NCBI GenBank assembly: GCA_963931495.1
Contig: OZ007020.1
Location: 1 to 32,000, forward strand
DNA from: an uncultured Alphaproteobacteria bacterium
Lineage (GTDB): Bacteria > Pseudomonadota > Alphaproteobacteria > Rs-D84
DNA: 32,000 nt
Reading direction: 5' to 3'
Position 1 is the first letter of the stretch. The number at the start of each line of letters is the position of its first letter. The position numbers and the translations under genes were made by a program. Below, one piece after another: positions 1,389-32,000 of the stretch. The notes under the pieces were generated by a model that did not search any database, was not told where the DNA came from, and saw nothing but the letters and a program-made list of their open reading frames with translations.

Positions 1389-4097
1389 ATGCGCAAAATT
1401 ATCGTATCGTCTGTAATTGTAATATCCTGTATCATCCCGGCATTTGCCACAGATGCACCAGATTTTAATACTTTTTATGCGTTATATAAAACAGCATCCC
1501 AAGAAAATGATATAACCATCACAGGCGATATCGTATCCACACGGCTTATCAGTGCACCTGGGGCAACAACGACCCGCATAAATGGCGGTCAATTTGATTT
1601 CAATGGCAACAGTATGATTGGATTTATTTTGTCATCAGGTAATAATCTGGATATATCAAATGTCGGCACATTCACAACAGATGGCAATCAAGTCAATATC
1701 ACAAAATCTTTCAACACATTTTCTAATTCATCCGAAGGGGGTGTTATATCAAATCTGGGCGGGAATGTAACAATTAACAATTCAGCATTCAGTAATAATT
1801 CATCTGTACTGGGGGGCGGGGTTATTTATTTGAACAACAACGCAACTGTAACCGCAACGGACAGCGTATTCAGTAACAATCACGCAACGCGTGGCGATGG
1901 CGGCGTTATTTATAATGAATATGAAACCGTATCTACATTTAGCAATGCGCAATTTACATCAAATTCTGCCAGCGATATGGGCGGCGTCGCATTTAACGAC
2001 GGCGAAATAAACATCAATAATTCTGTTTTTACATCAAATACCGCGACCAGTGGCGGTGCATTATATAACTCTAATATCATCAACATAGATGGCGCGACAT
2101 TTACATCTAATACATCCGACGATATCGGTGGCGCAATCTATACCACCGGTACACTGAATTTAACCAACGCAACATTTGAAAACAACACCAGTGATACCGG
2201 CGGCGGCATTGGTAACTATGGCATCAGTGGCGATACACTGTATGCTGTTGTGCGCAATTCTGAATTTAATAACAACCGGGCAACATACGGTGGCGCAATC
2301 TATAACTGGGACGACATGTATGTCATAGACAGTAATTTTATCAATAATTCTGCCACAGACAGTGGCGGCGCAATAATGAACATGTATGAATTGTACTTGA
2401 TTGCAAATAACGATGATATGTTGTTTTCTGGCAATACATCAGGCGGAAAATCAAATGCAATTCAGTCCAGTGGAACAATCGGTATGAATGCTGCCGAAAA
2501 CCGTACAATAACATTTGATGACAATATTGCTGGTGATGGCGAAATAATTATTAATCGGCAATTTATTTTTAATGAATCAAATGTGCCGACCGGTGGGACA
2601 ATTGTATTAAATAATGATATGACCGGATTTACCGGGAACGTAACAATGTACAACGGAAACGTTAATGTTACAACAAACGGAAAATTTTTTCATGCAAATC
2701 GTCTGGATGTGATTGGCGGCACATTAAACCTGGGGACAACATCAGCAAATGTAACCAGTGCGAACTTTGCCACTGGGGCCACATTGGGAATAACAATCGC
2801 GAATGAAAATACGTATGGAAATTTAACGGCACGCGATTGGAATATTTCTGATGGTGCACGCATGAATGTTATTTTAGAACCGAATGCACTGGGCACAAAC
2901 AGCAGTATGCGCGTTCAAATACTGCGTGGCAATGCCGTCCAAGACAACTTTGTCCCAGACATAAATAATAACATATATTCATTCATCGGACTGGGGGATG
3001 GGTGGTACGAAATCGCACAGTACAGCGACTTTAACAATATTATACGAGAATATGGGGGTACAGCAAATAACCTGAATACCGCATCTGCGTGGCAAAATGA
3101 ACCAGATACCAACGGTATGGAACGCGTTATATACACGCGCATGAACGAACTGTTACAAACAAATGCAATTGAATATATACATGCGTTAACCGCACTGGCA
3201 CCGGTAACTGCACCAATTATGCAGATTATCGGGACAACACTGAATGACCGATTTGATTTACTGACCAACAATGTCGCAACACGCAACACCATCAAAGATT
3301 CATACAATGGCACATTGTGGATGTCTGGGTTCACAGGTGGTGGACAACTGGACGCAACGATGCACTATGCCGAATTTAATATCAACGGATATGGCGGTGC
3401 AATTGGTGCAGAATATCAAAATCATGATTTGACACTGGGGATTGCATATACATATCAAAACGATGATTTATCCAGTTGGTCGCGCACAATAAATGCCCCA
3501 ACGCATGGTGGCGGAATATATGCCACATACAATCATGGGGGAATTACATTGCGCGCCAAGGCAACAGGATTTTATTCAGATGCATCCGAAGTAAAACATG
3601 TCGCAGGATTAAATATATATAACGAAATCCCGTTATACACGTTTGGCGCATGGATGGATGCCGGATATTCTTTTGACACCAGTGGCATATCAATAACACC
3701 ACGTGCCGGGGCGCGTTACGTAAAAATACATCGTCAATCATCAACCGATACAGCAACCCAGTTAATATCATCTGGGAATATGGATTTTGTAACCGCATAT
3801 GGCGATATAACATTTCGCATAAAAAACATCAACATATTCGGAACGGCAATTATACCAGAATTCATTATCGGCACTGCATATGATTTACACGGTAATTCTG
3901 ACAATGTAAATGTTAAAATAAACGATACAGAATATAATATCACATCCGCCCAGTTGCCACGTTGGCAAACAAAAATTGGCGCGGTTGTCCGGGTATTATT
4001 TACACCAAACACTGAAATACAAATTGGATGCGATGGTGAATTTCGCGAAGGATATTATGATTATACCGTCGGCGCACGTGGAATATTAAAATTCTGA
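1389..4097 (+). CDS. Autotransporter outer-membrane protein with a Pmp-type (polymorphic membrane protein) repeat passenger domain
   Basis: 902 aa with signal peptide MRKIIVSSVIVISCIIPAFA. About 10 tandem units of FxxN-(x4-6)-GG[AVG][IVL] (e.g. FSNNSSVLGGGVIY, FTSNTATSGGALYN, FNNNRATYGGAIYN) span aa ~110-360. The C-terminal ~280 aa has beta-strand-like alternating aromatic/Gly sequence and ends ...GILKF (terminal Phe). Confidence 0.85.
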   Translation: MRKIIVSSVIVISCIIPAFATDAPDFNTFYALYKTASQENDITITGDIVSTRLISAPGATTTRINGGQFDFNGNSMIGFILSSGNNLDISNVGTFTTDGNQVNITKSFNTFSNSSEGGVISNLGGNVTINNSAFSNNSSVLGGGVIYLNNNATVTATDSVFSNNHATRGDGGVIYNEYETVSTFSNAQFTSNSASDMGGVAFNDGEININNSVFTSNTATSGGALYNSNIINIDGATFTSNTSDDIGGAIYTTGTLNLTNATFENNTSDTGGGIGNYGISGDTLYAVVRNSEFNNNRATYGGAIYNWDDMYVIDSNFINNSATDSGGAIMNMYELYLIANNDDMLFSGNTSGGKSNAIQSSGTIGMNAAENRTITFDDNIAGDGEIIINRQFIFNESNVPTGGTIVLNNDMTGFTGNVTMYNGNVNVTTNGKFFHANRLDVIGGTLNLGTTSANVTSANFATGATLGITIANENTYGNLTARDWNISDGARMNVILEPNALGTNSSMRVQILRGNAVQDNFVPDINNNIYSFIGLGDGWYEIAQYSDFNNIIREYGGTANNLNTASAWQNEPDTNGMERVIYTRMNELLQTNAIEYIHALTALAPVTAPIMQIIGTTLNDRFDLLTNNVATRNTIKDSYNGTLWMSGFTGGGQLDATMHYAEFNINGYGGAIGAEYQNHDLTLGIAYTYQNDDLSSWSRTINAPTHGGGIYATYNHGGITLRAKATGFYSDASEVKHVAGLNIYNEIPLYTFGAWMDAGYSFDTSGISITPRAGARYVKIHRQSSTDTATQLISSGNMDFVTAYGDITFRIKNINIFGTAIIPEFIIGTAYDLHGNSDNVNVKINDTEYNITSAQLPRWQTKIGAVVRVLFTPNTEIQIGCDGEFREGYYDYTVGARGILKF

Positions 4098-5402: not shown

Positions 5403-7517
5403 TTACTTATTGAATATACTTTGTATCCATCCCTCATAATCCATTGCTTCGCCGGCGTCAACCGTACCACCAACGCCATTTGTGCTGACACACGTCACTA
5501 TCATTGAATTACATGCACGAAGTGCCACGCCATTTATACCCTCTGTTCCGCCGGTTGTGGCATTATAACCGTTGCTGACCAGACATGATATAACATCGTC
5601 AATGCATCGTTCGGCATGATCGGCAAGAATCGTATCTTGCTGGGCCTTGATGGTTGTTAATGTACGCAACAAGTATTCTTTGATAACAACATTGTCCGGA
5701 TCATACGCACCGTCTGAACCAGTATATGTCAAATCTTGACACATATTTAATACAGACATGCACATACCAGAATTCTTGCCATCTTGATTAGTGCCAATTT
5801 TGTCCTTTAAGAATTTCACAATGTTTGTATCATCTTGGTCAATAAACTCTGACATATTGCCGGTCTTCCAGGCAGACTTGCCATCGTACAGCCAAGTTGC
5901 ATAAACGCCGGCTGATTTATCCATATCTTCACCGACCTGGCCCGGCGTACTGCCCACGACAACATCACCATTTACGATATACTTACCGGTTGGGTCCAGA
6001 CAGTATTCATACTTACGACCACATGCAAATTCGTCTTGCATACATGAATCCAGTTCGGTCACACATTCACGTAAATCATACGCATTCTTTTGTTCCGCAA
6101 CCATTAATCGCGCACGCTGCAGTAACGATGTCGCATTGCGAACCGTCGCAGACATCTGGTCGTTCGCATCCGTCAGTGACCGTTCATATGCAATACACGC
6201 CTTGTCTATTTCCAAATCATACGAATTCGTTATCACTGATATATCAACACCCTGGGATTGACAACTGTTCAATACAGACGCCTTGCAACGCGCAGCCGCC
6301 GTTTCATACAAATCTTCACCACGCTGGTTGCTGATACTGCTGGTGTCAACACCAGAATTACCAAACAAATTCGCTAAATCAAATCCAGAACTGTCCAAAG
6401 AAAAGTCCAACAGACCACTTAAATCAAAACTTAATCCACTGGATGCATTTGAACGCGCACGACCAGATTCAACATCTATTATCATGTCACGTATGGATTC
6501 CAGACTGTTCATGAATTGACTGTTATCCGTTGACCCAGATAATTCTGTTTCGGCCGCTGTTTCGGTAAACAGTGATTCAACCTGGTCCGCCGTCAGTCCA
6601 ATGTATTGAATTTGTTGCGCAACGTCTTGCAGACGTTCCGTGGCTTCTTTTAACGCTGCCTCAGTCTCGGCATAATTGCTTAAATTCGCACTGCAACTGC
6701 AACGACCCTGGTTGTCATCCAAAACATTACAGAAATTATCCATACATGCCGTATATTGCGCCTTGCAAAAATCGGTCAATTGCGCCAATTCATCCATAGA
6801 TGTTACAGATGACGTAGTGGTTGCCGCCGTCGTTGTGGTGGTTGCCGCACTGGACGTCGCGCGAATCGTTGGAACACGCGCACTGACTGTATTTGTACTG
6901 GCCACGCCAACACGACTGGTTACATATAATGGTTTATTAACTGTATCTGTTTGAACCAACGTGGCACGCGCCGTATTCGCATTATTATTCTGTGATGCGC
7001 GACGGGTTGTTACCCCCGGTGTTGTTGTTGCCGACGTCGTTGTCGCACGAACAGTTGTGGTTGGACGACTGGATACCGTATTTGTTGCCGTTGCACGCGA
7101 TGTACGTGACGACGCGTTCGCGGTTGCACCACGTGTTGTTGCCGCACGTGTTGCATTTACACGCGACACAGTTGTCGGTGTTGTCGCCGTACGAACCGTT
7201 ACATTGCGCGATGGCGTTGCATTATTACGTGTTGAAACATTACGCGATGACGTTGTGCCACCCGTGGCAACCGCACGCGACGCAGATGCGCGCCCCGATG
7301 TATTGCGCGGACTGGCCGTGGTGGGAACAACCGGCTGTTTTGCAACCGGGACCGTTGGTTGTTGCGTTTCATCCGCAACCGGTTCCGCAATTTCGGATTC
7401 CACCGGCATATCGTCAGAATACTGCATCAGCATATCTTGATAGAAATATTCTGGTGCAACCTCTGCAAATGCAGGTAAACTCAACACCCCAACAAGCACA
7501 GTGATAAAGCGTTTCAT
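5403..7517 (-). CDS. Secreted protein of unknown function: signal peptide, ~195-aa Thr/Arg/Ser/Ala-rich low-complexity region, then a ~460-aa Cys-rich domain
   Basis: The ORF-track entry was trimmed to MKRFITVLVGVLSLPAFA|EV (ATG at 7517, AGAGGG RBS upstream). 704 aa. Recurrent C-x6-7-C pairs run through the C-terminal domain. No family was recognised. Confidence 0.75.
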   Translation of the reverse strand: MKRFITVLVGVLSLPAFAEVAPEYFYQDMLMQYSDDMPVESEIAEPVADETQQPTVPVAKQPVVPTTASPRNTSGRASASRAVATGGTTSSRNVSTRNNATPSRNVTVRTATTPTTVSRVNATRAATTRGATANASSRTSRATATNTVSSRPTTTVRATTTSATTTPGVTTRRASQNNNANTARATLVQTDTVNKPLYVTSRVGVASTNTVSARVPTIRATSSAATTTTTAATTTSSVTSMDELAQLTDFCKAQYTACMDNFCNVLDDNQGRCSCSANLSNYAETEAALKEATERLQDVAQQIQYIGLTADQVESLFTETAAETELSGSTDNSQFMNSLESIRDMIIDVESGRARSNASSGLSFDLSGLLDFSLDSSGFDLANLFGNSGVDTSSISNQRGEDLYETAAARCKASVLNSCQSQGVDISVITNSYDLEIDKACIAYERSLTDANDQMSATVRNATSLLQRARLMVAEQKNAYDLRECVTELDSCMQDEFACGRKYEYCLDPTGKYIVNGDVVVGSTPGQVGEDMDKSAGVYATWLYDGKSAWKTGNMSEFIDQDDTNIVKFLKDKIGTNQDGKNSGMCMSVLNMCQDLTYTGSDGAYDPDNVVIKEYLLRTLTTIKAQQDTILADHAERCIDDVISCLVSNGYNATTGGTEGINGVALRACNSMIVTCVSTNGVGGTVDAGEAMDYEGWIQSIFNK

Positions 7518-7543
7518 TTGAAAAGTACCCTCTTTTATCAAAG

Positions 7544-7572
7544 ATTTTACCACATTATGCAAATTTATACAA
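7544..7572 (-). promoter_or_regulatory. Candidate promoter for the Cys-rich secreted protein gene
   Basis: Minus strand reads TTGTAT, a 17-nt spacer, then TAAAAT. The predicted TSS is ~20 nt upstream of the ATG. Confidence 0.35.
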
Positions 7573-7651
7573 ACAAAAAATACGTTATAAAACAAAAATT
7601 TATATATAGACGGGTGAATGAATTCCTGATTTATTAAAAAATTTAATGAAT

Positions 7652-7681
7652 TTGACATTTGCTGTAATTAACATATATAAT
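7652..7681 (+). promoter_or_regulatory. Candidate promoter for the phospholipase D-family gene
   Basis: TTGACA (7652-7657), an 18-nt spacer, then TATAAT (7676-7681). Confidence 0.45.
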
Positions 7682-26337: not shown

Positions 26338-26397
26338 ACAAACACATCCCAAATATTTCGCGTCCATCCACCATTGCCAAACGCAGCAGCAGACATC

Positions 26398-26456
26398 AAA
26401 TTCCCCAAAATATGACAAGCATATTTTGGCGAATTTTCTGGCAGGGGCAGAAGGAA
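26398..26456. repeat. Copy A of a perfect 59-bp direct repeat (tRNA-Trp 3' fragment plus downstream hairpin)
   Basis: Identical to 26579-26637: aaattccccaaaatatgacaagcatattttggcgaattttctggcaggggcagaaggaa. It contains a 10-bp hairpin ccaaaatatg/catattttgg (26405-26429). Confidence 0.95.
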
Positions 26457-26578
26457 AGTTCGGCGTCACCTCACCACTCGTACGGATTTCGCCGCGCTGC
26501 GCTTGCAAAATCCAACTCGTATGCGAACCCAGCATTTTATGTATTCGGGTTCGCTTCCTTTACCCACACCACGACTTA

Positions 26579-26637
26579 AAATTCCCCAAAATATGACAAG
26601 CATATTTTGGCGAATTTTCTGGCAGGGGCAGAAGGAA
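26579..26637. repeat. Copy B of the 59-bp direct repeat, overlapping the 3' 18 nt of the intact tRNA-Trp gene
   Basis: Identical to 26398-26456. Positions 26620-26637 are the complement of the tRNA-Trp 3' end (TTCCTTCTGCCCCTGCCA). Confidence 0.95.
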
Positions 26638-26693
26638 TCGAACCCTCATCCGCGGTTTTGGAGACCGATATTCTACCGTTGAACTATGCCCCT
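26620..26693 (-). tRNA. tRNA-Trp (anticodon CCA)
   Basis: The reverse complement is AGGGGCATAGTTCAACGGTAGAATATCGGTCTCCAAAACCGCGGATGAGGGTTCGATTCCTTCTGCCCCTGCCA. It folds as a cloverleaf with acceptor AGGGGCA/TGCCCCT, T arm GAGGG-TTCGATT-CCTTC and anticodon loop CTCCAAA. It occupies the canonical position upstream of secE. Confidence 0.9.
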
Positions 26694-26926: not shown

Positions 26927-26956
26927 TTGCGTATATGTCTGATTTTTTTCTACAAT
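26927..26956 (+). promoter_or_regulatory. Candidate promoter for the virB8/9/10-like operon
   Basis: TTGCGT (26927-26932), an 18-nt spacer, then TACAAT (26951-26956), about 28 nt upstream of the start codon. Confidence 0.3.
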
Positions 26957-26983
26957 CTGGTTAATAAGAAGGAGAGAAATCAG

Positions 26984-27658
26984 TTGCAAAACCGCATAGA
27001 ACCGCCGATTTTGTTGTCCAGGCTGATGCTGTTTGTTTTTACAACGATGCTGGTCGTGCTGGTTGTGATGCTGGTTGCGGTGTATAATATGTATCCATTA
27101 AATCGGCCCCAGGTGTTCTTTTTAATGACCGCCCCCCAGGATAATTTGACCGTTGTATTACGGGAATTGGTGCCGGTTGATGAAAATCTTGATAATTTTA
27201 AGCGCACATTTATTCGCGAATACATTCGGGCACGGAATGAAATTGTACCAAATGCCGCCGAAATGCGCGAAAAATGGAATAATGCTGATAACGGTGTCGT
27301 GTACGAATGGTCAACCCAAGATGTATACAACGCCTTTACCCAAACAAATATGTGGAATGCATGGATGGGTGGGGTTCCGGATTTTGAATTTTCTTGTTCT
27401 GTGGAATTTGACAATGGGGCGATTTCGCCACGCGGAAATGATGTTTATTCTGTAAAATTTCGTTATTTCTGTTCAGATAGTAATAGACAGATGGATAAAA
27501 AAGATTATACAATACAATTGAAATTGGAAATGGAAGATAACGCAACGATAAAATGGGACGAACGACTGGATAATCCATTGGGCATTCGGGTTTCTGAATA
27601 CACAATTGAATCTGGTAACGGCGATCCGTTGGATACAGGTTATCTGGCAAGTAATTAA
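26984..27658 (+). CDS. virB8: VirB8-like type IV secretion system inner-membrane protein
   Basis: The TTG start at 26984 lies 9 nt after AAGGAG (26969-26974); the ORF-track start at 26927 has no RBS. The ~224-aa protein has a short N-terminus, one TM (LMLFVFTTMLVVLVVMLVAVY) and a periplasmic domain. That domain carries FIREYIRARNEI and the C-terminal NPLGIRVSEY, which matches the conserved NPxG motif of VirB8 proteins. Confidence 0.75.
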   Translation: MQNRIEPPILLSRLMLFVFTTMLVVLVVMLVAVYNMYPLNRPQVFFLMTAPQDNLTVVLRELVPVDENLDNFKRTFIREYIRARNEIVPNAAEMREKWNNADNGVVYEWSTQDVYNAFTQTNMWNAWMGGVPDFEFSCSVEFDNGAISPRGNDVYSVKFRYFCSDSNRQMDKKDYTIQLKLEMEDNATIKWDERLDNPLGIRVSEYTIESGNGDPLDTGYLASN

Positions 27659-27687
27659 AGTGTGACACGAAACGTAAGGGAAAGGTT

Positions 27688-29211
27688 ATGACATTTTCAA
27701 AGGCGCTTAAATTAAATGTATCTGTATTATGCCTGGTGTTGTTGTGCGGGGGCGCGATGGCTGCTGGAACGAACTATGGCGTGCAATCGGCATGGGATAA
27801 TCCAACGGCAAACATGGCCGCCGGCAGTGTCAAGCCTGGATACGCACAATTGACCTGGTCCAAGGGCAGTGTTTTACCCGTAAAATTGCGTAACGGAATG
27901 ACAACATTGATTGCACTGCCAAACGGCGAAAAAATTGCAGATGCCGTTATCGGAAATGATGGGCTGTTTTCAATTGATGCAACCCAAGGGGGCAGCACGA
28001 TGTTCATCACCCCGGTATCCAGCAACCAGGGTTCGGATACTAATTTGATTGTGTCGGGTGAATCTGGGAACGTGTACACATTTTATCTGCGCAGCGAACC
28101 ATCTAATTCCAGTGAAATCACATATTCCCAGGTTGATGTCGTATTGGATGGTAATGCACCAGTGTCAACCGCATCTGGCGCAACAAATGCCGCCGGCGGA
28201 TCGTCGTCTATATTCAAAAAGCAAAATGCCGCCGCCAGTACGATTGGGGTTGATGGCGAAGATTACGGATGGATTAAATCAATGAAAATTGATCCGTCTG
28301 AATTCCGATTTGACTTGGATATATTCGTTCCAAATCCAGACGATTATGTTATTGCACCTGAACGCGTATGGCGCGATCGGATATTTACGTATATTGACTT
28401 TGGGGACAAGGTTATTTCCATGACCCAGCGCCCGGTTGTATCTTTATTAATAGAAGGCGGTGAATCACCGGTCGGATTCCGCACGGATGGCGAAGATGGC
28501 CGTCTGTTAATCGTTGAAGCGGTTGGTGACATGGTTCTGCGCAGTGGGCAACGCATTGTTTGTATCAAAAAGCGCGAAAAACCGTTCTTGATTGCGGATA
28601 CGGCATCGGTTATGGCGTTGGCCGAAGCGAACGTTGCGCAATCCATTATGTCTGGCCAATCGTTAAATAATATCGCGTACAGCGCGGACCAGGCGGCGAT
28701 TAACGCATCTGTAAATGGTTATACAACGTCACCAATTATGGTTGGTAATATGCCGGCGGGCACAACCAGTGGATATTACGCACCGGCGGGGTACGCCATG
28801 CCGGCCGTCACCAGTGGCGGGGCAACCACAACCGCAATGGTGCCCACAGAACGGTTAACGGCGGGTTCGTTCTTGCCACAGTCAAACATTCCATTGATAA
28901 CCAGTAATCAAACCGGTGTCGCGGTTGAATTGAAATCCGACACATCGGTCAAGGCGTTGGATGATTATTGGGCAAATCTGTTGGCGAAATTCAGTGGCGA
29001 TGACGGTCAAGGTATATTAACCCCATACAAAGACATGGTGTTCTTTGCGGTGGACGAACAAGGGGTCGGTGATTTGGGGGCGGATTCTTCGGCTGCGCGT
29101 CTGTATCGGTTGCGCATTGGGCCGCTGTCTGATGTAAATACGGCCCAACAATTATGCAACCAGTTACTGGAATTCAGTGGAACCAGTTGCAGTGTCGTGC
29201 GCGTACAATAA
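27688..29211 (+). CDS. virB9: VirB9/TrbG/CagX-like T4SS outer-membrane core protein with a C-terminal SPOR-like domain
   Basis: 507 aa with a signal peptide. The N-domain (aa ~45-140) reads LPVKLRNGMTTLIALPNGEKIADAVIGNDGLFSID...STMFITPV...DTNLIVSGESGNVYTFYL. The C-domain (aa ~195-300) reads IAPERVWRDRIFTYIDFGD...PVVSLLIEGGESPVGFRTDGEDGRLLIVEAVGDMVLRSGQRIVCI. A low-complexity linker is followed by aa ~409-507, ending LYRLRIGPLSDVNTAQQLCNQLLEFSGTSCSVVRVQ (SPOR-like). Confidence 0.8.
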   Translation: MTFSKALKLNVSVLCLVLLCGGAMAAGTNYGVQSAWDNPTANMAAGSVKPGYAQLTWSKGSVLPVKLRNGMTTLIALPNGEKIADAVIGNDGLFSIDATQGGSTMFITPVSSNQGSDTNLIVSGESGNVYTFYLRSEPSNSSEITYSQVDVVLDGNAPVSTASGATNAAGGSSSIFKKQNAAASTIGVDGEDYGWIKSMKIDPSEFRFDLDIFVPNPDDYVIAPERVWRDRIFTYIDFGDKVISMTQRPVVSLLIEGGESPVGFRTDGEDGRLLIVEAVGDMVLRSGQRIVCIKKREKPFLIADTASVMALAEANVAQSIMSGQSLNNIAYSADQAAINASVNGYTTSPIMVGNMPAGTTSGYYAPAGYAMPAVTSGGATTTAMVPTERLTAGSFLPQSNIPLITSNQTGVAVELKSDTSVKALDDYWANLLAKFSGDDGQGILTPYKDMVFFAVDEQGVGDLGADSSAARLYRLRIGPLSDVNTAQQLCNQLLEFSGTSCSVVRVQ

Positions 29212-29232
29212 TTGTCAGAATCTGTGGGTAAA

Positions 29233-31695
29233 ATGAATATAAAAAAACAATTTTCAGAAATGCGCAAAAATACGCCAAAGCATATACAATGGCTGTTGTT
29301 GGCGGCGGCGTTTGTTGTCGTAATTATACTGTTAACACTGTTGTTAACAAACCACGAAGAAGAAGTACTGGAAAGCAACGGCGATGTCGCCATTACATTG
29401 GGAATTGTGCCAGATACAATTGAATGGCCAGATGTGTCTGTTGGTGATACAAAAACCGAAACAATAAAGGTTACGGCCAGTGCACCAATAAAAATTGTCG
29501 GGCTTAACCTGGAACACGATATTCCGGGATTAAAGCAACCAATACAGCAAACATGCACATCAATGGGGCAAATTGATGCAGATAATGCATGCACAATTGT
29601 TTTGGAATACAGTCCGATTGCGGCATCTGATGTAACAACCACCGAATTGTACATTGAATGGCATGATGCAAACGCATCTGAAAGCATGAAAAATACTGGG
29701 CGTGCCATTTTGGTTGTTGGTGCCAACGACCCAGCGCCGGTTGTTGAACCAGAACCAATTATTGAACCAGAACCGCTTGTAATCCCAGATCCAGAACCGA
29801 TTATTGAACCAGAACCCGTGGTTGCGCCTGAACCGGTTGTTGCGCCAACCCCAACAATCAAACAAGAAATAAAATCTGAATTGGCAGAAATTATACCAAC
29901 AAATGATTTTGTGTTTGATGATGAACCAACTGTCACCACAATGACAGATACCGGCGCAAATACAACGGCCCCTGTACCGTCTGAGGCATGTTCTGACTTT
30001 GCCATGCCGGGTTACAACTTGTCAGGGGTGCAGAGTGGATGGATTCGCCCCAGCGGTGGCGCATATTATTTCCATCCGTTTTCTGATACAGAGTGCAAAA
30101 ATCCAACCGGAACGTATAATCCAGACAACGGTATTATCACAGATATAAATAATCCGGCACAAAAAATTGGTACAGATGCCGAACATATCGGATATACAAC
30201 AATAACAAATGGAACATTACCACAACTGTCTAATCCGGCAACAACACGCAATGAAAATAAAGCGGTACAATTAACCGCGGCGGAAATAAACGCACTGCCA
30301 CAATTATCGTCAGCGGGTCAAATGAAGCATGTTGAATTAAAGGCCGCACCCAAAGCACAAGTTATTGTCGGAACCAGTGGTTCGGCAACATATTCGTCAG
30401 ACCCATATGACAGAAGTTTTGTTCTGCGCCAGTATAAACCAATTCCTGCAACAATTGTGTCCGAGGTTCGCGCCGACCCAACAATTTATGAATCTGGTCA
30501 TGCACTGCCGGTCCAGGCAACTGTTGACAGAAATGTTTATTCTGATGATGGACGCACGATTGTAATTCCAACTGGCACACTAATGTTGGGATATGTTAAT
30601 GGTGAATTGCCGGGACCGTATAAGTCAATTGGACGCATGAATATTAATTGGTATCAATTTATATTGCCAAATGGGGTTGAATTCAATTTCACCGGCGACC
30701 CAAACCAGGATCCTTTTTCGGCGGATTCCCAGGGTCGTGTCGGTGTTCCTGGACACGGCAGTACAGATTATGTTGAACAATTGGTTATGCCAATGCTGAC
30801 CGCGATTGTGCCAGCGGCGGTTAATATGATTGCACCAATATCAGACGCATTTATAAACCAAATTGATCTGGATAATAATACCGTTGTGCAAAGCGGAACA
30901 ATTCGTTCATCCGAATTGGCCAAAAATGAAATTATTACCGCATGGAACCAGGTTGCACAAAAGTTACTGGTTGATGCCATGGATAATACCATTCCGCCAT
31001 TTTCTATTGCGGCCGGTACACGTATAACCGTATATTCACCGACTGATTTGGTTATAACATGTGGTCACGACGCAGATAAAATCTGTTCTGTTGAAAATCT
31101 GTACCAGGAGACACAATTGCGTCCTAATTGGCGCCACAATGTCACCGTTAATCCGAATGATGGTTCATGGACAGGCCAAGTACGTTCATTTAATCTGGAA
31201 CAATATTGCACAACGGACAGTGATGGCATTTGGGATATTAAGCCTGGCGTAGAAGGTGAAATTATAAATTCTGGATACGATTACAGAACTGTGTTGGCGT
31301 ATTGTCAATCATTGAATTACCAGGCGATTAATAATGCACGCCAAGATGCGGTATACCAAAATCAACAACAGCAATTCCAGAACAGTTACAGTGTTCAATC
31401 ATCGGGGGCATCAAATACAATCAGTGGCCTGAGTGGTATAACCGGCAGCCAGGCGTATAACGAAGATATCTTGGGGTTGACATATGATGACAGTGGCGCG
31501 ATTCAAAATCCATTCGTTGAATCAGACGCATTGACAGATGTCACAGAAACCACAGAAACAGTCATAACATGCGATGGCGGGGTGGCACCTGATGAATACG
31601 GTTGCTGTCCGGGTGAAATATATACCGATATGGGCGAACAAGGATTCAATTGCTGTCCGGAAACAGGGGGCGATTGTTTCCCGCCGATATTGTAA
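29233..31695 (+). CDS. virB10: Enlarged VirB10/TrbI-like T4SS protein (Ig-like module, Pro-rich region, VirB10 core, Cys-rich C-terminal extension)
   Basis: An ATG at 29233 gives 820 aa; an in-frame TTG at 29212 abuts the upstream stop. Numbering from 29212, the TM is WLLLAAAFVVVIILLTLLLT. A beta-rich module covers aa 57-172. The Pro-rich region PAPVVEPEPIIEPEPLVIPDPEPIIEPEPVVAPEPVVAPTPT covers aa 173-215. The VirB10/TrbI-like core covers aa ~395-615 (IPATIVSEV...VIPTGTLMLGYVNG...GRMNINWYQFILPNGVEF...DSQGRVGVPGH...AAGTRITVYSPTDLVI). A ~210-aa extension ends CDGGVAPDEYGCCPGEIYTDMGEQGFNCCPETGGDCFPPIL. Confidence 0.8.
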   Translation: MNIKKQFSEMRKNTPKHIQWLLLAAAFVVVIILLTLLLTNHEEEVLESNGDVAITLGIVPDTIEWPDVSVGDTKTETIKVTASAPIKIVGLNLEHDIPGLKQPIQQTCTSMGQIDADNACTIVLEYSPIAASDVTTTELYIEWHDANASESMKNTGRAILVVGANDPAPVVEPEPIIEPEPLVIPDPEPIIEPEPVVAPEPVVAPTPTIKQEIKSELAEIIPTNDFVFDDEPTVTTMTDTGANTTAPVPSEACSDFAMPGYNLSGVQSGWIRPSGGAYYFHPFSDTECKNPTGTYNPDNGIITDINNPAQKIGTDAEHIGYTTITNGTLPQLSNPATTRNENKAVQLTAAEINALPQLSSAGQMKHVELKAAPKAQVIVGTSGSATYSSDPYDRSFVLRQYKPIPATIVSEVRADPTIYESGHALPVQATVDRNVYSDDGRTIVIPTGTLMLGYVNGELPGPYKSIGRMNINWYQFILPNGVEFNFTGDPNQDPFSADSQGRVGVPGHGSTDYVEQLVMPMLTAIVPAAVNMIAPISDAFINQIDLDNNTVVQSGTIRSSELAKNEIITAWNQVAQKLLVDAMDNTIPPFSIAAGTRITVYSPTDLVITCGHDADKICSVENLYQETQLRPNWRHNVTVNPNDGSWTGQVRSFNLEQYCTTDSDGIWDIKPGVEGEIINSGYDYRTVLAYCQSLNYQAINNARQDAVYQNQQQQFQNSYSVQSSGASNTISGLSGITGSQAYNEDILGLTYDDSGAIQNPFVESDALTDVTETTETVITCDGGVAPDEYGCCPGEIYTDMGEQGFNCCPETGGDCFPPIL

Positions 31696-31699
31696 ATAA

Positions 31700-31724
31700 C
31701 GGCCTGCCATTGGCGGGCTGTTTT
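31700..31724 (+). terminator. Rho-independent terminator ending the virB8/9/10-like operon
   Basis: A 9-bp stem cggcctgcc/ggcgggctg (two G-U pairs) with loop att, followed by TTTT. It starts 5 nt after the stop codon. Confidence 0.7.
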
Positions 31725-31733
31725 AATAACAGA

Positions 31734-31762
31734 TTGAAAAACCAAGGGAGTTATGCTATAAT
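31734..31762 (+). promoter_or_regulatory. Near-consensus sigma70 promoter with an extended -10
   Basis: TTGAAA (31734-31739), a 17-nt spacer, then TGC-TATAAT (31754-31762). Confidence 0.55.
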
Positions 31763-31767
31763 GCAAG

Positions 31768-31818
31768 TCTGAAAATATCTGATATTATATTGCGCGCGCG
31801 ATTTGCGCGTTTTTTTTA
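31768..31818 (+). ncRNA. Candidate ~50-nt small RNA or attenuated leader, defined by the promoter at 31734 and the terminator at 31795
   Basis: The predicted TSS is near 31769. The transcript would contain a small hairpin aatat-ctg-atatt and then the GC hairpin plus U8 terminator. It holds no plausible ORF. Confidence 0.3.
31795..31818 (+). terminator. Rho-independent terminator (GC hairpin plus T8)
   Basis: Stem cgcgc/gcgcg (31795-31799 / 31805-31809) with loop gattt, followed by TTTTTTTT (31810-31817). Confidence 0.65.
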
Positions 31819-31991
31819 TTTTATACACATAATAATCGCACCAATTACGATTCGTGCGCATGTGTATAAATCGCATAAACGAATCGGTTTTCCGATTCAC
31901 AAATCAACCAACGGTTGTACTGTTTTACATAATACAACCAATGGTATATACATCCAATCATAACCAAACAACATAAAAGGAGAAAAAATAC

Positions 31992-32000
31992 ATGACATCG
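31992..32000 (+). CDS. Probable start of an unidentified CDS running off the window (MTS...)
   Basis: The ATG at 31992 is preceded by AAGGAG 9 nt upstream. Only 3 codons are visible, so the product is unknown. Confidence 0.3.

Follow-up and report, generated by a model that had tools for sequence, protein, structure and literature searches.

The source of the 32,000-nucleotide stretch of DNA analyzed here, called the window throughout, is Candidatus Enterousia, a gut alphaproteobacterium of the order Rs-D84 that is uncultured and has a genome of ~0.9 Mb. Toward its right end lie three tandem genes whose products belong to the VirB8, VirB9, and VirB10 families, and this trio very probably constitutes the core of a functional type IV secretion system (T4SS). 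The trio is a self-contained single transcription unit. As a core locus it is inherited vertically and evolves under strong constraint, and it is neither an island nor the tail of a conjugative element. We favor, with more reserve, the explanation that it is the chromosomal, vertically inherited core of a P-type (VirB-like) T4SS that works with ATPases encoded elsewhere in the genome.

The biology of the host makes such a locus worth attention. Enterousia genomes of 0.75 to 1.0 Mb lack a tricarboxylic acid cycle, a respiratory chain, and standard uptake transporters, and their glycolysis is incomplete (PMC12306168). The authors who described these organisms suggested a partner-dependent lifestyle, with no machinery named (PMC12306168). 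Both Candidatus Enterousia and its order occur widely in the guts of humans and livestock. A T4SS core whose place beside ribosomal and Sec genes is fixed in every species examined, and whose rate of evolution is nearly as low as that of ribosomal protein L1, is a concrete candidate for the machinery of partner dependence. For the T4SS field, the interest lies in the fusion of VirB9 to a SPOR-like domain, the apparent replacement of VirB7, and an unusually invariant "antenna" region in VirB10.

Family assignment and domain architecture

A sequence-only reading of the window had proposed that the trio encodes the envelope-spanning core module of a T4SS-like machine, and had called for profile hidden Markov model searches with the VirB8, CagX, and TrbI families. 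In those searches all three products scored above the Pfam curated cut-offs, so that the module belongs to the VirB8/9/10 families by profile score and, for VirB9, by predicted fold as well. The genes and the protein regions discussed below are as follows.

26984 to 27658, forward strand: virB8-like gene, 224 residues as given by gene callers; Pfam VirB8 match
27688 to 29211, forward strand: virB9-like gene, 507 residues; Pfam CagX match, AlphaFold model, Foldseek matches
28885 to 29208, forward strand: SPOR-like C-terminal domain of VirB9, residues 400 to 507; weak Pfam SPOR match, predicted fold
29233 to 31695, forward strand: virB10-like gene, 820 residues; Pfam TrbI match plus a TonB_N-like proline-rich region
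30766 to 30987, forward strand: candidate outer-membrane antenna of VirB10, residues 512 to 585 (two helices and a loop); helices predicted with low confidence
31063 to 31692, forward strand: lineage-specific C-terminal extension of VirB10, residues 611 to 820, ending CCPGEIYTDMGEQGFNCCPETGGDCFPPIL; no family match

The VirB8 protein scores 55.9 bits with Pfam VirB8 (PF04335), whose cut-off is 23.2; the match (E = 6.8e-15) runs over profile positions 9 to 210 of 213 (202 covered). Its sequence reads as a short cytoplasmic N terminus, a single hydrophobic stretch at about residues 14 to 34, and a periplasmic VirB8 domain. The motif NPLGIRVSEY stands near the end, at residues 197 to 206 (27572 to 27601); the single transmembrane (TM) segment and this motif were the hallmarks by which the protein had originally been recognized, and both hold.

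VirB9 scores 76.7 bits with CagX/VirB9/TrbG (PF03524), whose cut-off is 34.2; the E value of the match is 2.8e-21. A signal peptide (residues 1 to 25) is followed by an N-terminal beta-sandwich (30 to 155), an Ala/Gly/Ser linker, a C-terminal beta-sandwich (200 to 300), helices (305 to 339), a disordered linker, and the SPOR-like domain. The AlphaFold model, built on an alignment of 49 sequences, has a predicted local distance difference test score (pLDDT) above 90 in the three domains. Foldseek matched the first two domains to Xanthomonas VirB9, R388 TrwF, Legionella DotH, CagX, and pKM101 TraO (top matches 6gyb_B, 8rt6_B, 7muc [DotH], 7o3t_B, 3jqo_B, and 2ofq; E values from 5e-17 to 3e-5), with per-domain TM-scores of 0.6 to 0.8 against the solved structures. 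The two VirB9 domains claimed from the sequence are thus both modeled as beta-sandwiches and matched to solved VirB9 folds; at the sequence level, VirB9 found no match in the PDB. Residues 201 to 325 are 97 to 100% conserved among 26 species.

At the C-terminal domain of VirB9, Pfam SPOR (PF05036) scores 18.6 bits on the window protein, just under its 21-bit cut-off, while 15 of the 49 family members match it at an E value of 0.01 or lower (best, 3.5e-6). The predicted topology is beta-alpha-beta-beta-alpha-beta at a pLDDT of ~90, and the domain carries a YRLRIGP...A..LC..L motif and two invariant cysteines, C490 and C501. A profile of the domain found no match by sequence in the PDB. Together, the modeled fold and the weak family matches suggest that the domain is SPOR-like, which in turn suggests peptidoglycan binding. 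Our literature search returned no paper that mentions VirB9 together with a SPOR domain, and we regard the fusion as a new feature. A D-Ala-D-Ala carboxypeptidase (Peptidase_S11) encoded ~8 kb downstream of the trio also has a C-terminal SPOR domain, at 23.5 bits (L016 18967 to 20181 and L049 5324 to 6469, both on the reverse strand); SPOR domains thus serve at least two envelope proteins of the small Enterousia genome.

For VirB10, TrbI/VirB10 (PF03743), with a cut-off of 35, gives 56.2 bits; the match (E = 5.2e-15) places residues 399 to 606 on profile positions 3 to 186 of 188. Ahead of this TrbI barrel come a cytoplasmic tail (residues 1 to 18), a TM segment (19 to 40), an immunoglobulin-like (Ig-like) beta-sandwich (56 to 165), a proline-rich region with a TonB_N-like match (166 to 247), and a conserved cysteine-containing segment (250 to 335), which bears out the initial description of a TrbI core preceded by a TM segment and a proline-rich region. 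Two long helices are predicted within the barrel, at residues 512 to 546 and 560 to 585, and a cysteine-rich extension (611 to 820) follows it. The AlphaFold model, from a 13-sequence alignment, has a pLDDT of 41, and residues 56 to 165 alone are modeled with moderate confidence.

Conservation within VirB10 is uneven. Across 24 species, residues 512 to 585 are 91 to 96% conserved, the highest in the protein, and their position, which is that of the antenna in known VirB10 structures, makes them the candidate outer-membrane antenna. The cytoplasmic tail and TM segment are ~90% conserved, compared with 55 to 66% in the adjacent periplasmic domain; this suggests a conserved partner in the inner membrane or cytoplasm. 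In the C-terminal extension, the last 40 residues are 89 to 93% conserved and the end is rich in cysteine. The VirB10 proteins of two related loci (L034 and L042) lack the extension, and that of the nearest outgroup (L039) has ~115 nonaligning residues in its place. Of the earlier statement that all three proteins are atypical, the part concerning VirB9 and VirB10 stands, given their extra domains; VirB8 is ordinary. Also new in this variant is that its VirB10 carries an Ig-like domain together with a cysteine-rich tail.

In three long-read assemblies (L001, L003, and L004), VirB10 is broken into two or three open reading frames (ORFs). The window and three short-read (k87) assemblies of the same strain carry the intact 820-residue ORF, and the split ORFs are most likely long-read indel errors rather than pseudogenes.

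A single operon at a fixed chromosomal position

The three ORFs all lie on the forward strand, from 26927 or 26984 to 27658, from 27688 to 29211, and from 29212 or 29233 to 31695. Their gaps of 29 nucleotides (nt) (27659 to 27687) and 21 nt (29212 to 29232) agree with those read originally, and the signals that delimit the operon are listed here.

26927 to 26932 and 26951 to 26956, forward strand: trio promoter, -35 TTGCGT and -10 TACAAT with an 18-nt T-rich spacer; recognized by cross-species conservation
31698 to 31724, forward strand: intrinsic terminator closing the operon, an 11-bp stem (31698 to 31722) and then a U run
31734 to 31762, forward strand: promoter of the next gene, marking the boundary and outside the operon; TTGAAA-17-TATAAT with a TG element, 11 of 12 consensus matches
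26620 to 26693, reverse strand: tRNA-Trp, upstream of the trio with secE and nusG

The trio promoter is too weak to be detected in a consensus promoter scan. In an alignment of 26 species, the region upstream of VirB8 retains a T-rich run, TTGCGT, the 18-nt spacer, TACAAT, a ribosome-binding site, and a TTG or GTG start codon, and the sequence around the promoter elements drifts while the elements stay, as would be expected of the single promoter that had been proposed ahead of the trio. The VirB8 start codon in the window is the TTG at 26984, preceded by AAGGAGAG. Position 26927 was rejected as the start codon of virB8: this base is the first of the -35 hexamer, and the conserved TTG is the start.

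At the other end, the hairpin described as a strong terminator shortly after the last stop codon has a folding free energy of -18.1 kcal/mol (z score, -4.84), and no shuffled sequence folds as well. A GC-rich hairpin and U run of differing sequence occupy the equivalent position after VirB10 in 21 of 24 species, and an ATTGAAA element recurs 3' of the terminator in most of them. The next gene (115 amino acids) starts at 31993, 297 nt past the VirB10 stop codon, and runs off the end of the window; it has its own promoter, also as anticipated. The boundaries of the transcription unit are supported by the conservation of the promoter, start codon, and terminator across species.

To the left of the operon, the gene order is rpoC-rpoB-rplL-rplJ-rplA-rplK-nusG-secE-tRNA-Trp on the reverse strand, which confirms the placement of the trio beside tRNA-Trp and secE. 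The right part of the locus consists of VirB8-VirB9-VirB10 and the 115-residue gene on the forward strand, followed by yidC-lspA on the reverse strand. This order was compared among 105 assemblies, of which 80 are metagenome contigs and 25 are species genomes from GTDB; several of the latter bear the name Candidatus Enterousia, and the rest are labeled uncultured Alphaproteobacteria. It proved identical in every one of the 25 species loci and 80 metagenome loci, within the reach of each contig. Full-length VirB10 homologues are found in the 25 species genomes at 51 to 68% identity and overall at 51 to 98%. The exact VirB9 protein is present on many gut metagenome contigs, the longest of 968,759 bp. 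A metagenome scan with a narrowed VirB9 alignment yielded Enterousia-like loci only, with no intermediate gene orders among them.

The proteins themselves are under strong constraint. Mean pairwise identity across species is 0.82 for VirB9, 0.70 for VirB8, and 0.64 for VirB10, with 0.90 for RplA, and the identity of VirB9 to the window protein (72 to 90%) exceeds that of YidC and LspA from the same loci. Median ratios of nonsynonymous to synonymous substitution rates (dN/dS) are 0.065 for VirB9, 0.127 for VirB8, and 0.165 for VirB10, compared with 0.048 for rplA and 0.029 for nusG. The GC content of the trio is 0.44 to 0.49, versus 0.42 to 0.46 in the flanks. Fixed synteny and strong purifying selection thus identify a vertically inherited core locus that is not mobile. 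The possibility that the trio is simply the tail of a conjugative element, raised at the outset as what would overturn the interpretation, is contradicted by synteny fixed in 105 assemblies, housekeeping flanks, and the absence of a relaxase from the surveyed surroundings. Its fixed, housekeeping-like chromosomal position in a minimal genome is a new feature of this variant. The family assignment itself is not new, since a relative (P0123) is publicly annotated as "TrbG/VirB9 family."

Relatives and known systems

An exhaustive HMMER search with VirB9 found 506 representatives at an E value of 1e-3 or lower, a number that defines a narrow VirB9 subfamily. Several of its members share the SPOR-like end, at 36 to 45% identity. 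On two gut alphaproteobacterial contigs (L035 and L036), the order is lipoprotein-VirB8-VirB9-VirB10-VirB11, and in an abundant gut clade with a genome of ~1.85 Mb, a large TrbL/VirB6 gene lies 7 kb from the module. At three other loci (L034, L039, and L042), VirB8/9/10 or VirB9/10 sit among housekeeping genes, with no ATPase in the stretch available; one of these, L039, is the nearest outgroup, with a VirB9 of 47% identity. The clusters closest in kind to the trio (L035, L036, and L045 to L048) are chromosomal, keep the B8-B9-B10 order, and have a VirB9 that aligns from end to end, SPOR-like part included, at 37 to 41% identity. Unlike the trio, they include the lipoprotein, VirB11, and a beta-flower VirB10 of ~1,500 amino acids and, in one clade, TrbL/VirB6. 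The presence of the lipoprotein, VirB11, and TrbL/VirB6 beside the module in relatives argues that Enterousia has moved or lost these genes from the locus.

Several features of these relatives are worth recording in their own right. A small lipoprotein is encoded directly upstream of VirB8 in four lineages (L035 9028 to 9219, L036 1022 to 1237, L042 4026 to 4190, and L041 1 to 186). Its lipobox is followed by PVGIG...SPCAC(L/I)Q, and the proteins are homologous among lineages and belong to no Pfam family; they are likely the VirB7 analogue of these systems. The VirB10 proteins of the relatives reach ~1,500 to 1,630 amino acids with up to ten beta-flower (PF21785) repeats. An extra protein of ~1,000 to 1,140 amino acids is encoded between VirB9 and VirB10 in L036 and L045; that of L036 has beta-flower repeats, and the L045 counterpart is a 28%-identical homologue. 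For this decoration of T4SSs, which lies at L035 11563 to 16086, L036 3622 to 11535, and L045 1973 to 9986, we found no description.

Compared with the core of P-type systems (VirB/D4, Trw, and pKM101 Tra), the trio shows the same B8-B9-B10 order, the same three Pfam families, the same VirB9 folds, and a VirB10 with an N-terminal TM segment, a proline-rich region, and a TrbI barrel. It differs in having no VirB7 lipoprotein gene and no VirB1 to VirB6, VirB11, or VirD4 nearby, in a 507-residue VirB9 with a SPOR-like end, and in an 820-residue VirB10 with an Ig-like domain and a 210-residue cysteine-rich tail. It is also chromosomal, fixed, and conserved at the level of housekeeping genes, and its sequence is very distant. 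The absence of VirB7 and VirB11 from the locus is a new aspect of the variant.

Plasmids rarely carry a related VirB9: 18 of 72,556 plasmids in a collection match it at an E value of 1e-3 or lower. The closest annotated plasmid protein, from Sphingosinicella sp. BN140058 plasmid p1 (NZ_CP035502.1), is 38.5% identical over residues 32 to 296 and stands in the same B8-B9-B10 order. In contrast to the trio, that plasmid is a mobilizable megaplasmid with a full conjugative set (VirB2-like, VirB4, VirB8 to VirB11, VirD4, MobA, a topoisomerase, and a primase); its VirB9 (430 amino acids) matches CagX only in Pfam, with no SPOR match, and its VirB10 has 548 amino acids. Because relatives in the VirB9 subfamily sit in fuller T4SS clusters, we conclude that the Enterousia trio descends from ordinary alphaproteobacterial P-type T4SSs and has since lost or relocated its lipoprotein and VirB11.

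The rvh system of the Rickettsiales resembles the trio in occurring in a reduced-genome alphaproteobacterium, in placing T4SS genes in chromosomal housekeeping contexts, and in keeping B8-B9-B10 together. There, however, the module runs on into virB11-virD4, neither of which is found at the trio locus. rvh is defined by duplicated VirB4, VirB8, and VirB9, multiple VirB6, and no VirB5 (PMC11077975); the trio locus, to which this comparison applies, has a single VirB8 and a single VirB9. We treat the analogy to rvh, like that to ComB discussed below, as a lead only.

Proposed working and missing partners

The solved core-complex structures of the VirB, Trw, and pKM101 systems provide the basis for a model of how the trio may work. 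The N-terminal TM segment of VirB10 would hold the protein in the inner membrane, its Ig-like domain and proline-rich rod would cross the periplasm, and its TrbI barrel with the two-helix antenna would form the outer-membrane pore. VirB9, exported via its signal peptide, would contribute its two beta-sandwiches as inner and outer ring layers around VirB10, and its SPOR-like domain would tie the ring to peptidoglycan, perhaps replacing the stabilizing role of the VirB7 lipoprotein. VirB8, as a bitopic inner-membrane protein, would connect the ring to an inner-membrane platform, which, together with at least a VirB4 homologue as the ATPase, is assumed to be encoded elsewhere in the genome. The operon would then provide a conduit that is needed constitutively, through which exchange with a host cell or partner takes place on contact. 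This picture of a routine conduit draws on the conserved promoter and terminator, the constitutive-looking promoter, the slow evolution of the proteins, and the partner dependence of the organism. As to cargo, protein or nucleoprotein export is our guess, with ComB-like DNA uptake as the main alternative.

We surveyed ~70 kb of Enterousia sequence for T4SS partners, consisting of the window, 10 kb upstream, and ~28 kb downstream from a sister species, and several results weigh against the P-type explanation. Neither in this sequence nor within 10 kb of the trio in any of the 105 assemblies did we find VirB4, VirB11, VirD4, VirB6/TrbL, a pilin, or a relaxase. The Enterousia and L039 loci lack the VirB7-like lipoprotein and the VirB11 found on either side of the module in relatives. 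A search among proteins that started from the VirB11 of these relatives recovered its own clade only (65 to 70% identity), which is uninformative on Enterousia. All three proteins fall far under the NCBIfam equivalog cut-offs, VirB9 reaching 50.5 bits of 217.7 (TIGR02781) and VirB10 reaching 53.8 of 220 with the VirB10 model (NF038091) and 44.7 of 300 with the ComB10 model (NF038092); having passed Pfam and missed these thresholds, they belong to the families without being close counterparts of the canonical proteins. The VirB10 model is poor (pLDDT of 41), so that the pore and antenna assignment is tentative. Finally, the literature searched on Enterousia and Rs-D84 makes no mention of a T4SS or of the trio locus.

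Further searches bear on the same question. The statement that no VirB7-like gene, virB2 to virB6, virB11, or virD4 is adjacent to the trio holds for the window and for 10 kb on either side. Neither the window nor any Enterousia locus contains a lipobox/SPCAC ORF or motif of a VirB7-like lipoprotein, and when VirB4, VirB11, VirD4, TrbL, and MobA of L051 and L045 served as tblastn queries, 701 plus 881 kb (1.58 Mb) of Enterousia loci gave no match. The ~70 kb contains no integrase either. A "split system" with its ATPases encoded elsewhere in the genome is what we infer from the locus.

Alternative explanations

A different function for the same conduit is conceivable, namely, DNA uptake of the kind performed by ComB of Helicobacter pylori (comB6-10 plus comB2-4), in which the trio would carry DNA to the periplasm and ComEC would take it across the inner membrane. 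Such a system would need a VirB4-type ATPase alone, without VirB11 or VirD4, and the DNA might serve as a source of nucleotides. The Enterousia operon does end at VirB10 without VirB11 or VirD4, as comB6-10 does, and ComEC is kept in the genome, ~11 kb downstream of the trio in L049 and 4.4 kb downstream in L028, with more than 100 clusters 56 to 61% identical to the L028 protein. The L035 cluster lies between comM and gltX-comEC, and type IV pili have been reported for another lineage only in a paper on these lineages (PMC12306168). The proximity of ComEC, however, amounts to conserved synteny among the housekeeping genes of a small genome, ten unrelated ones of which separate it from the trio. 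The related abundant clade lacks the comM/comEC flanking, and the linkage of ComEC and ComM to the trio was downgraded to a weak clue; ComEC is, moreover, widespread among bacteria without known competence. Similarly, although ComB10 was the best PDB match of the VirB10 family profile, the sequence match was weak (E = 0.007), and VirB10 is no more similar to ComB10 than to VirB10, scoring 44.7 bits with the former NCBIfam model and 53.8 with the latter, both far under cut-off. Our survey at the level of the locus found no ComB6, ComB7, or ComB4. On these grounds we consider ComB-like uptake unlikely, if still the foremost competitor of the P-type explanation.

It is less probable still that the trio has outlived its machine, the ATPases, VirB6, and pilus being lost and the three proteins now acting as an ATPase-independent, peptidoglycan-anchored trans-envelope complex with an essential housekeeping role, for instance as an outer-membrane channel or a tether of the envelope. 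The lack of any other T4SS gene in the ~70 kb or near any of the 105 loci would fit such a remnant, as would the disappearance of the relatives' lipoprotein and VirB11 from the locus, the gain of SPOR-like and cysteine-rich domains, and housekeeping-level conservation (dN/dS of 0.065 for VirB9) among ribosomal, Sec, and YidC neighbors. Yet the survey for the missing genes covered ~8% of the genome, the conserved cytoplasmic tail of VirB10 points to a cytoplasmic partner, and we know of no precedent for VirB8/9/10 functioning without VirB4. Rickettsiales with reduced genomes have dispersed their T4SS genes and still retain the ATPases (PMC11077975). If the ATPases were indeed absent from Enterousia, the trio would be the first T4SS core complex known to be used autonomously, and in a minimal diderm genome. 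To a conjugative or integrative element, or a recent island that came to rest by chance beside tRNA-Trp, we give almost no credence. It is true that the relative of VirB9 that is closest among annotated plasmid proteins comes from a conjugative set that has a MobA relaxase, and a 65-nt repeat near the trio includes the 3' end of tRNA-Trp; but the position is the same in 105 of 105 assemblies spanning 51 to 98% VirB10 identity, the GC content matches that of the flanks, no integrase, relaxase, or replication gene occurs nearby in the window and surveyed flanks, and purifying selection is strong. The trio, furthermore, lies on the 5' side of the tRNA, while the repeat spans just 181 nt on the other side. 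A tRNA-linked island was rejected for these reasons, and the P-type core with dispersed ATPases remains the explanation that we prefer.

Neighboring genes and minor features

The 115-residue gene that follows VirB10 is present in 24 of the 24 loci that reach so far, at 60 to 76% identity and a dN/dS of 0.157. Its product (L002 14305 to 14652) looks cytoplasmic and has no match in Pfam or the PDB. We rejected it as a part of the module, given its own promoter past the terminator and the lack of a family or PDB match; in the nearest outgroup, the small gene after VirB10 is unrelated to it, which also counts against a core role. In the window species only, an insertion (L002 15073 to 18026) separates this gene from yidC; it encodes a 729-residue protein with no family match and a PagL lipid A deacylase, and the other 24 species do not have it.

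Between the operon and the 115-residue gene, a GC hairpin with a run of eight T residues (31792 to 31818) lies ~30 nt past the next-gene promoter and ~170 nt before 31993. The hairpin is no more stable than shuffled sequences (z score, -0.37) and has no Rfam match. The region from 31734 to 31830 could be a leader or attenuator or could give rise to a tiny transcript.

On the other side of the trio, a 65-nt direct repeat, 97% identical, occurs at 26392 to 26456 and 26573 to 26637, spaced 181 nt. The second copy holds the last 18 nt of tRNA-Trp (its 3' end, on the reverse strand) and a downstream hairpin (26578 to 26618), and the first is a partial duplicate between tRNA-Trp and secE. A tandem duplication could explain the repeat, as could an old att-like scar.

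Farther away in the window, the forward strand at 1389 to 4097 encodes a 902-residue adhesin/autotransporter-like protein with Chlamydia PMP-type repeats, and the reverse strand at 5403 to 7658 encodes a 751-residue protein with no family match. Both might be surface or interaction proteins of a partner-dependent organism.

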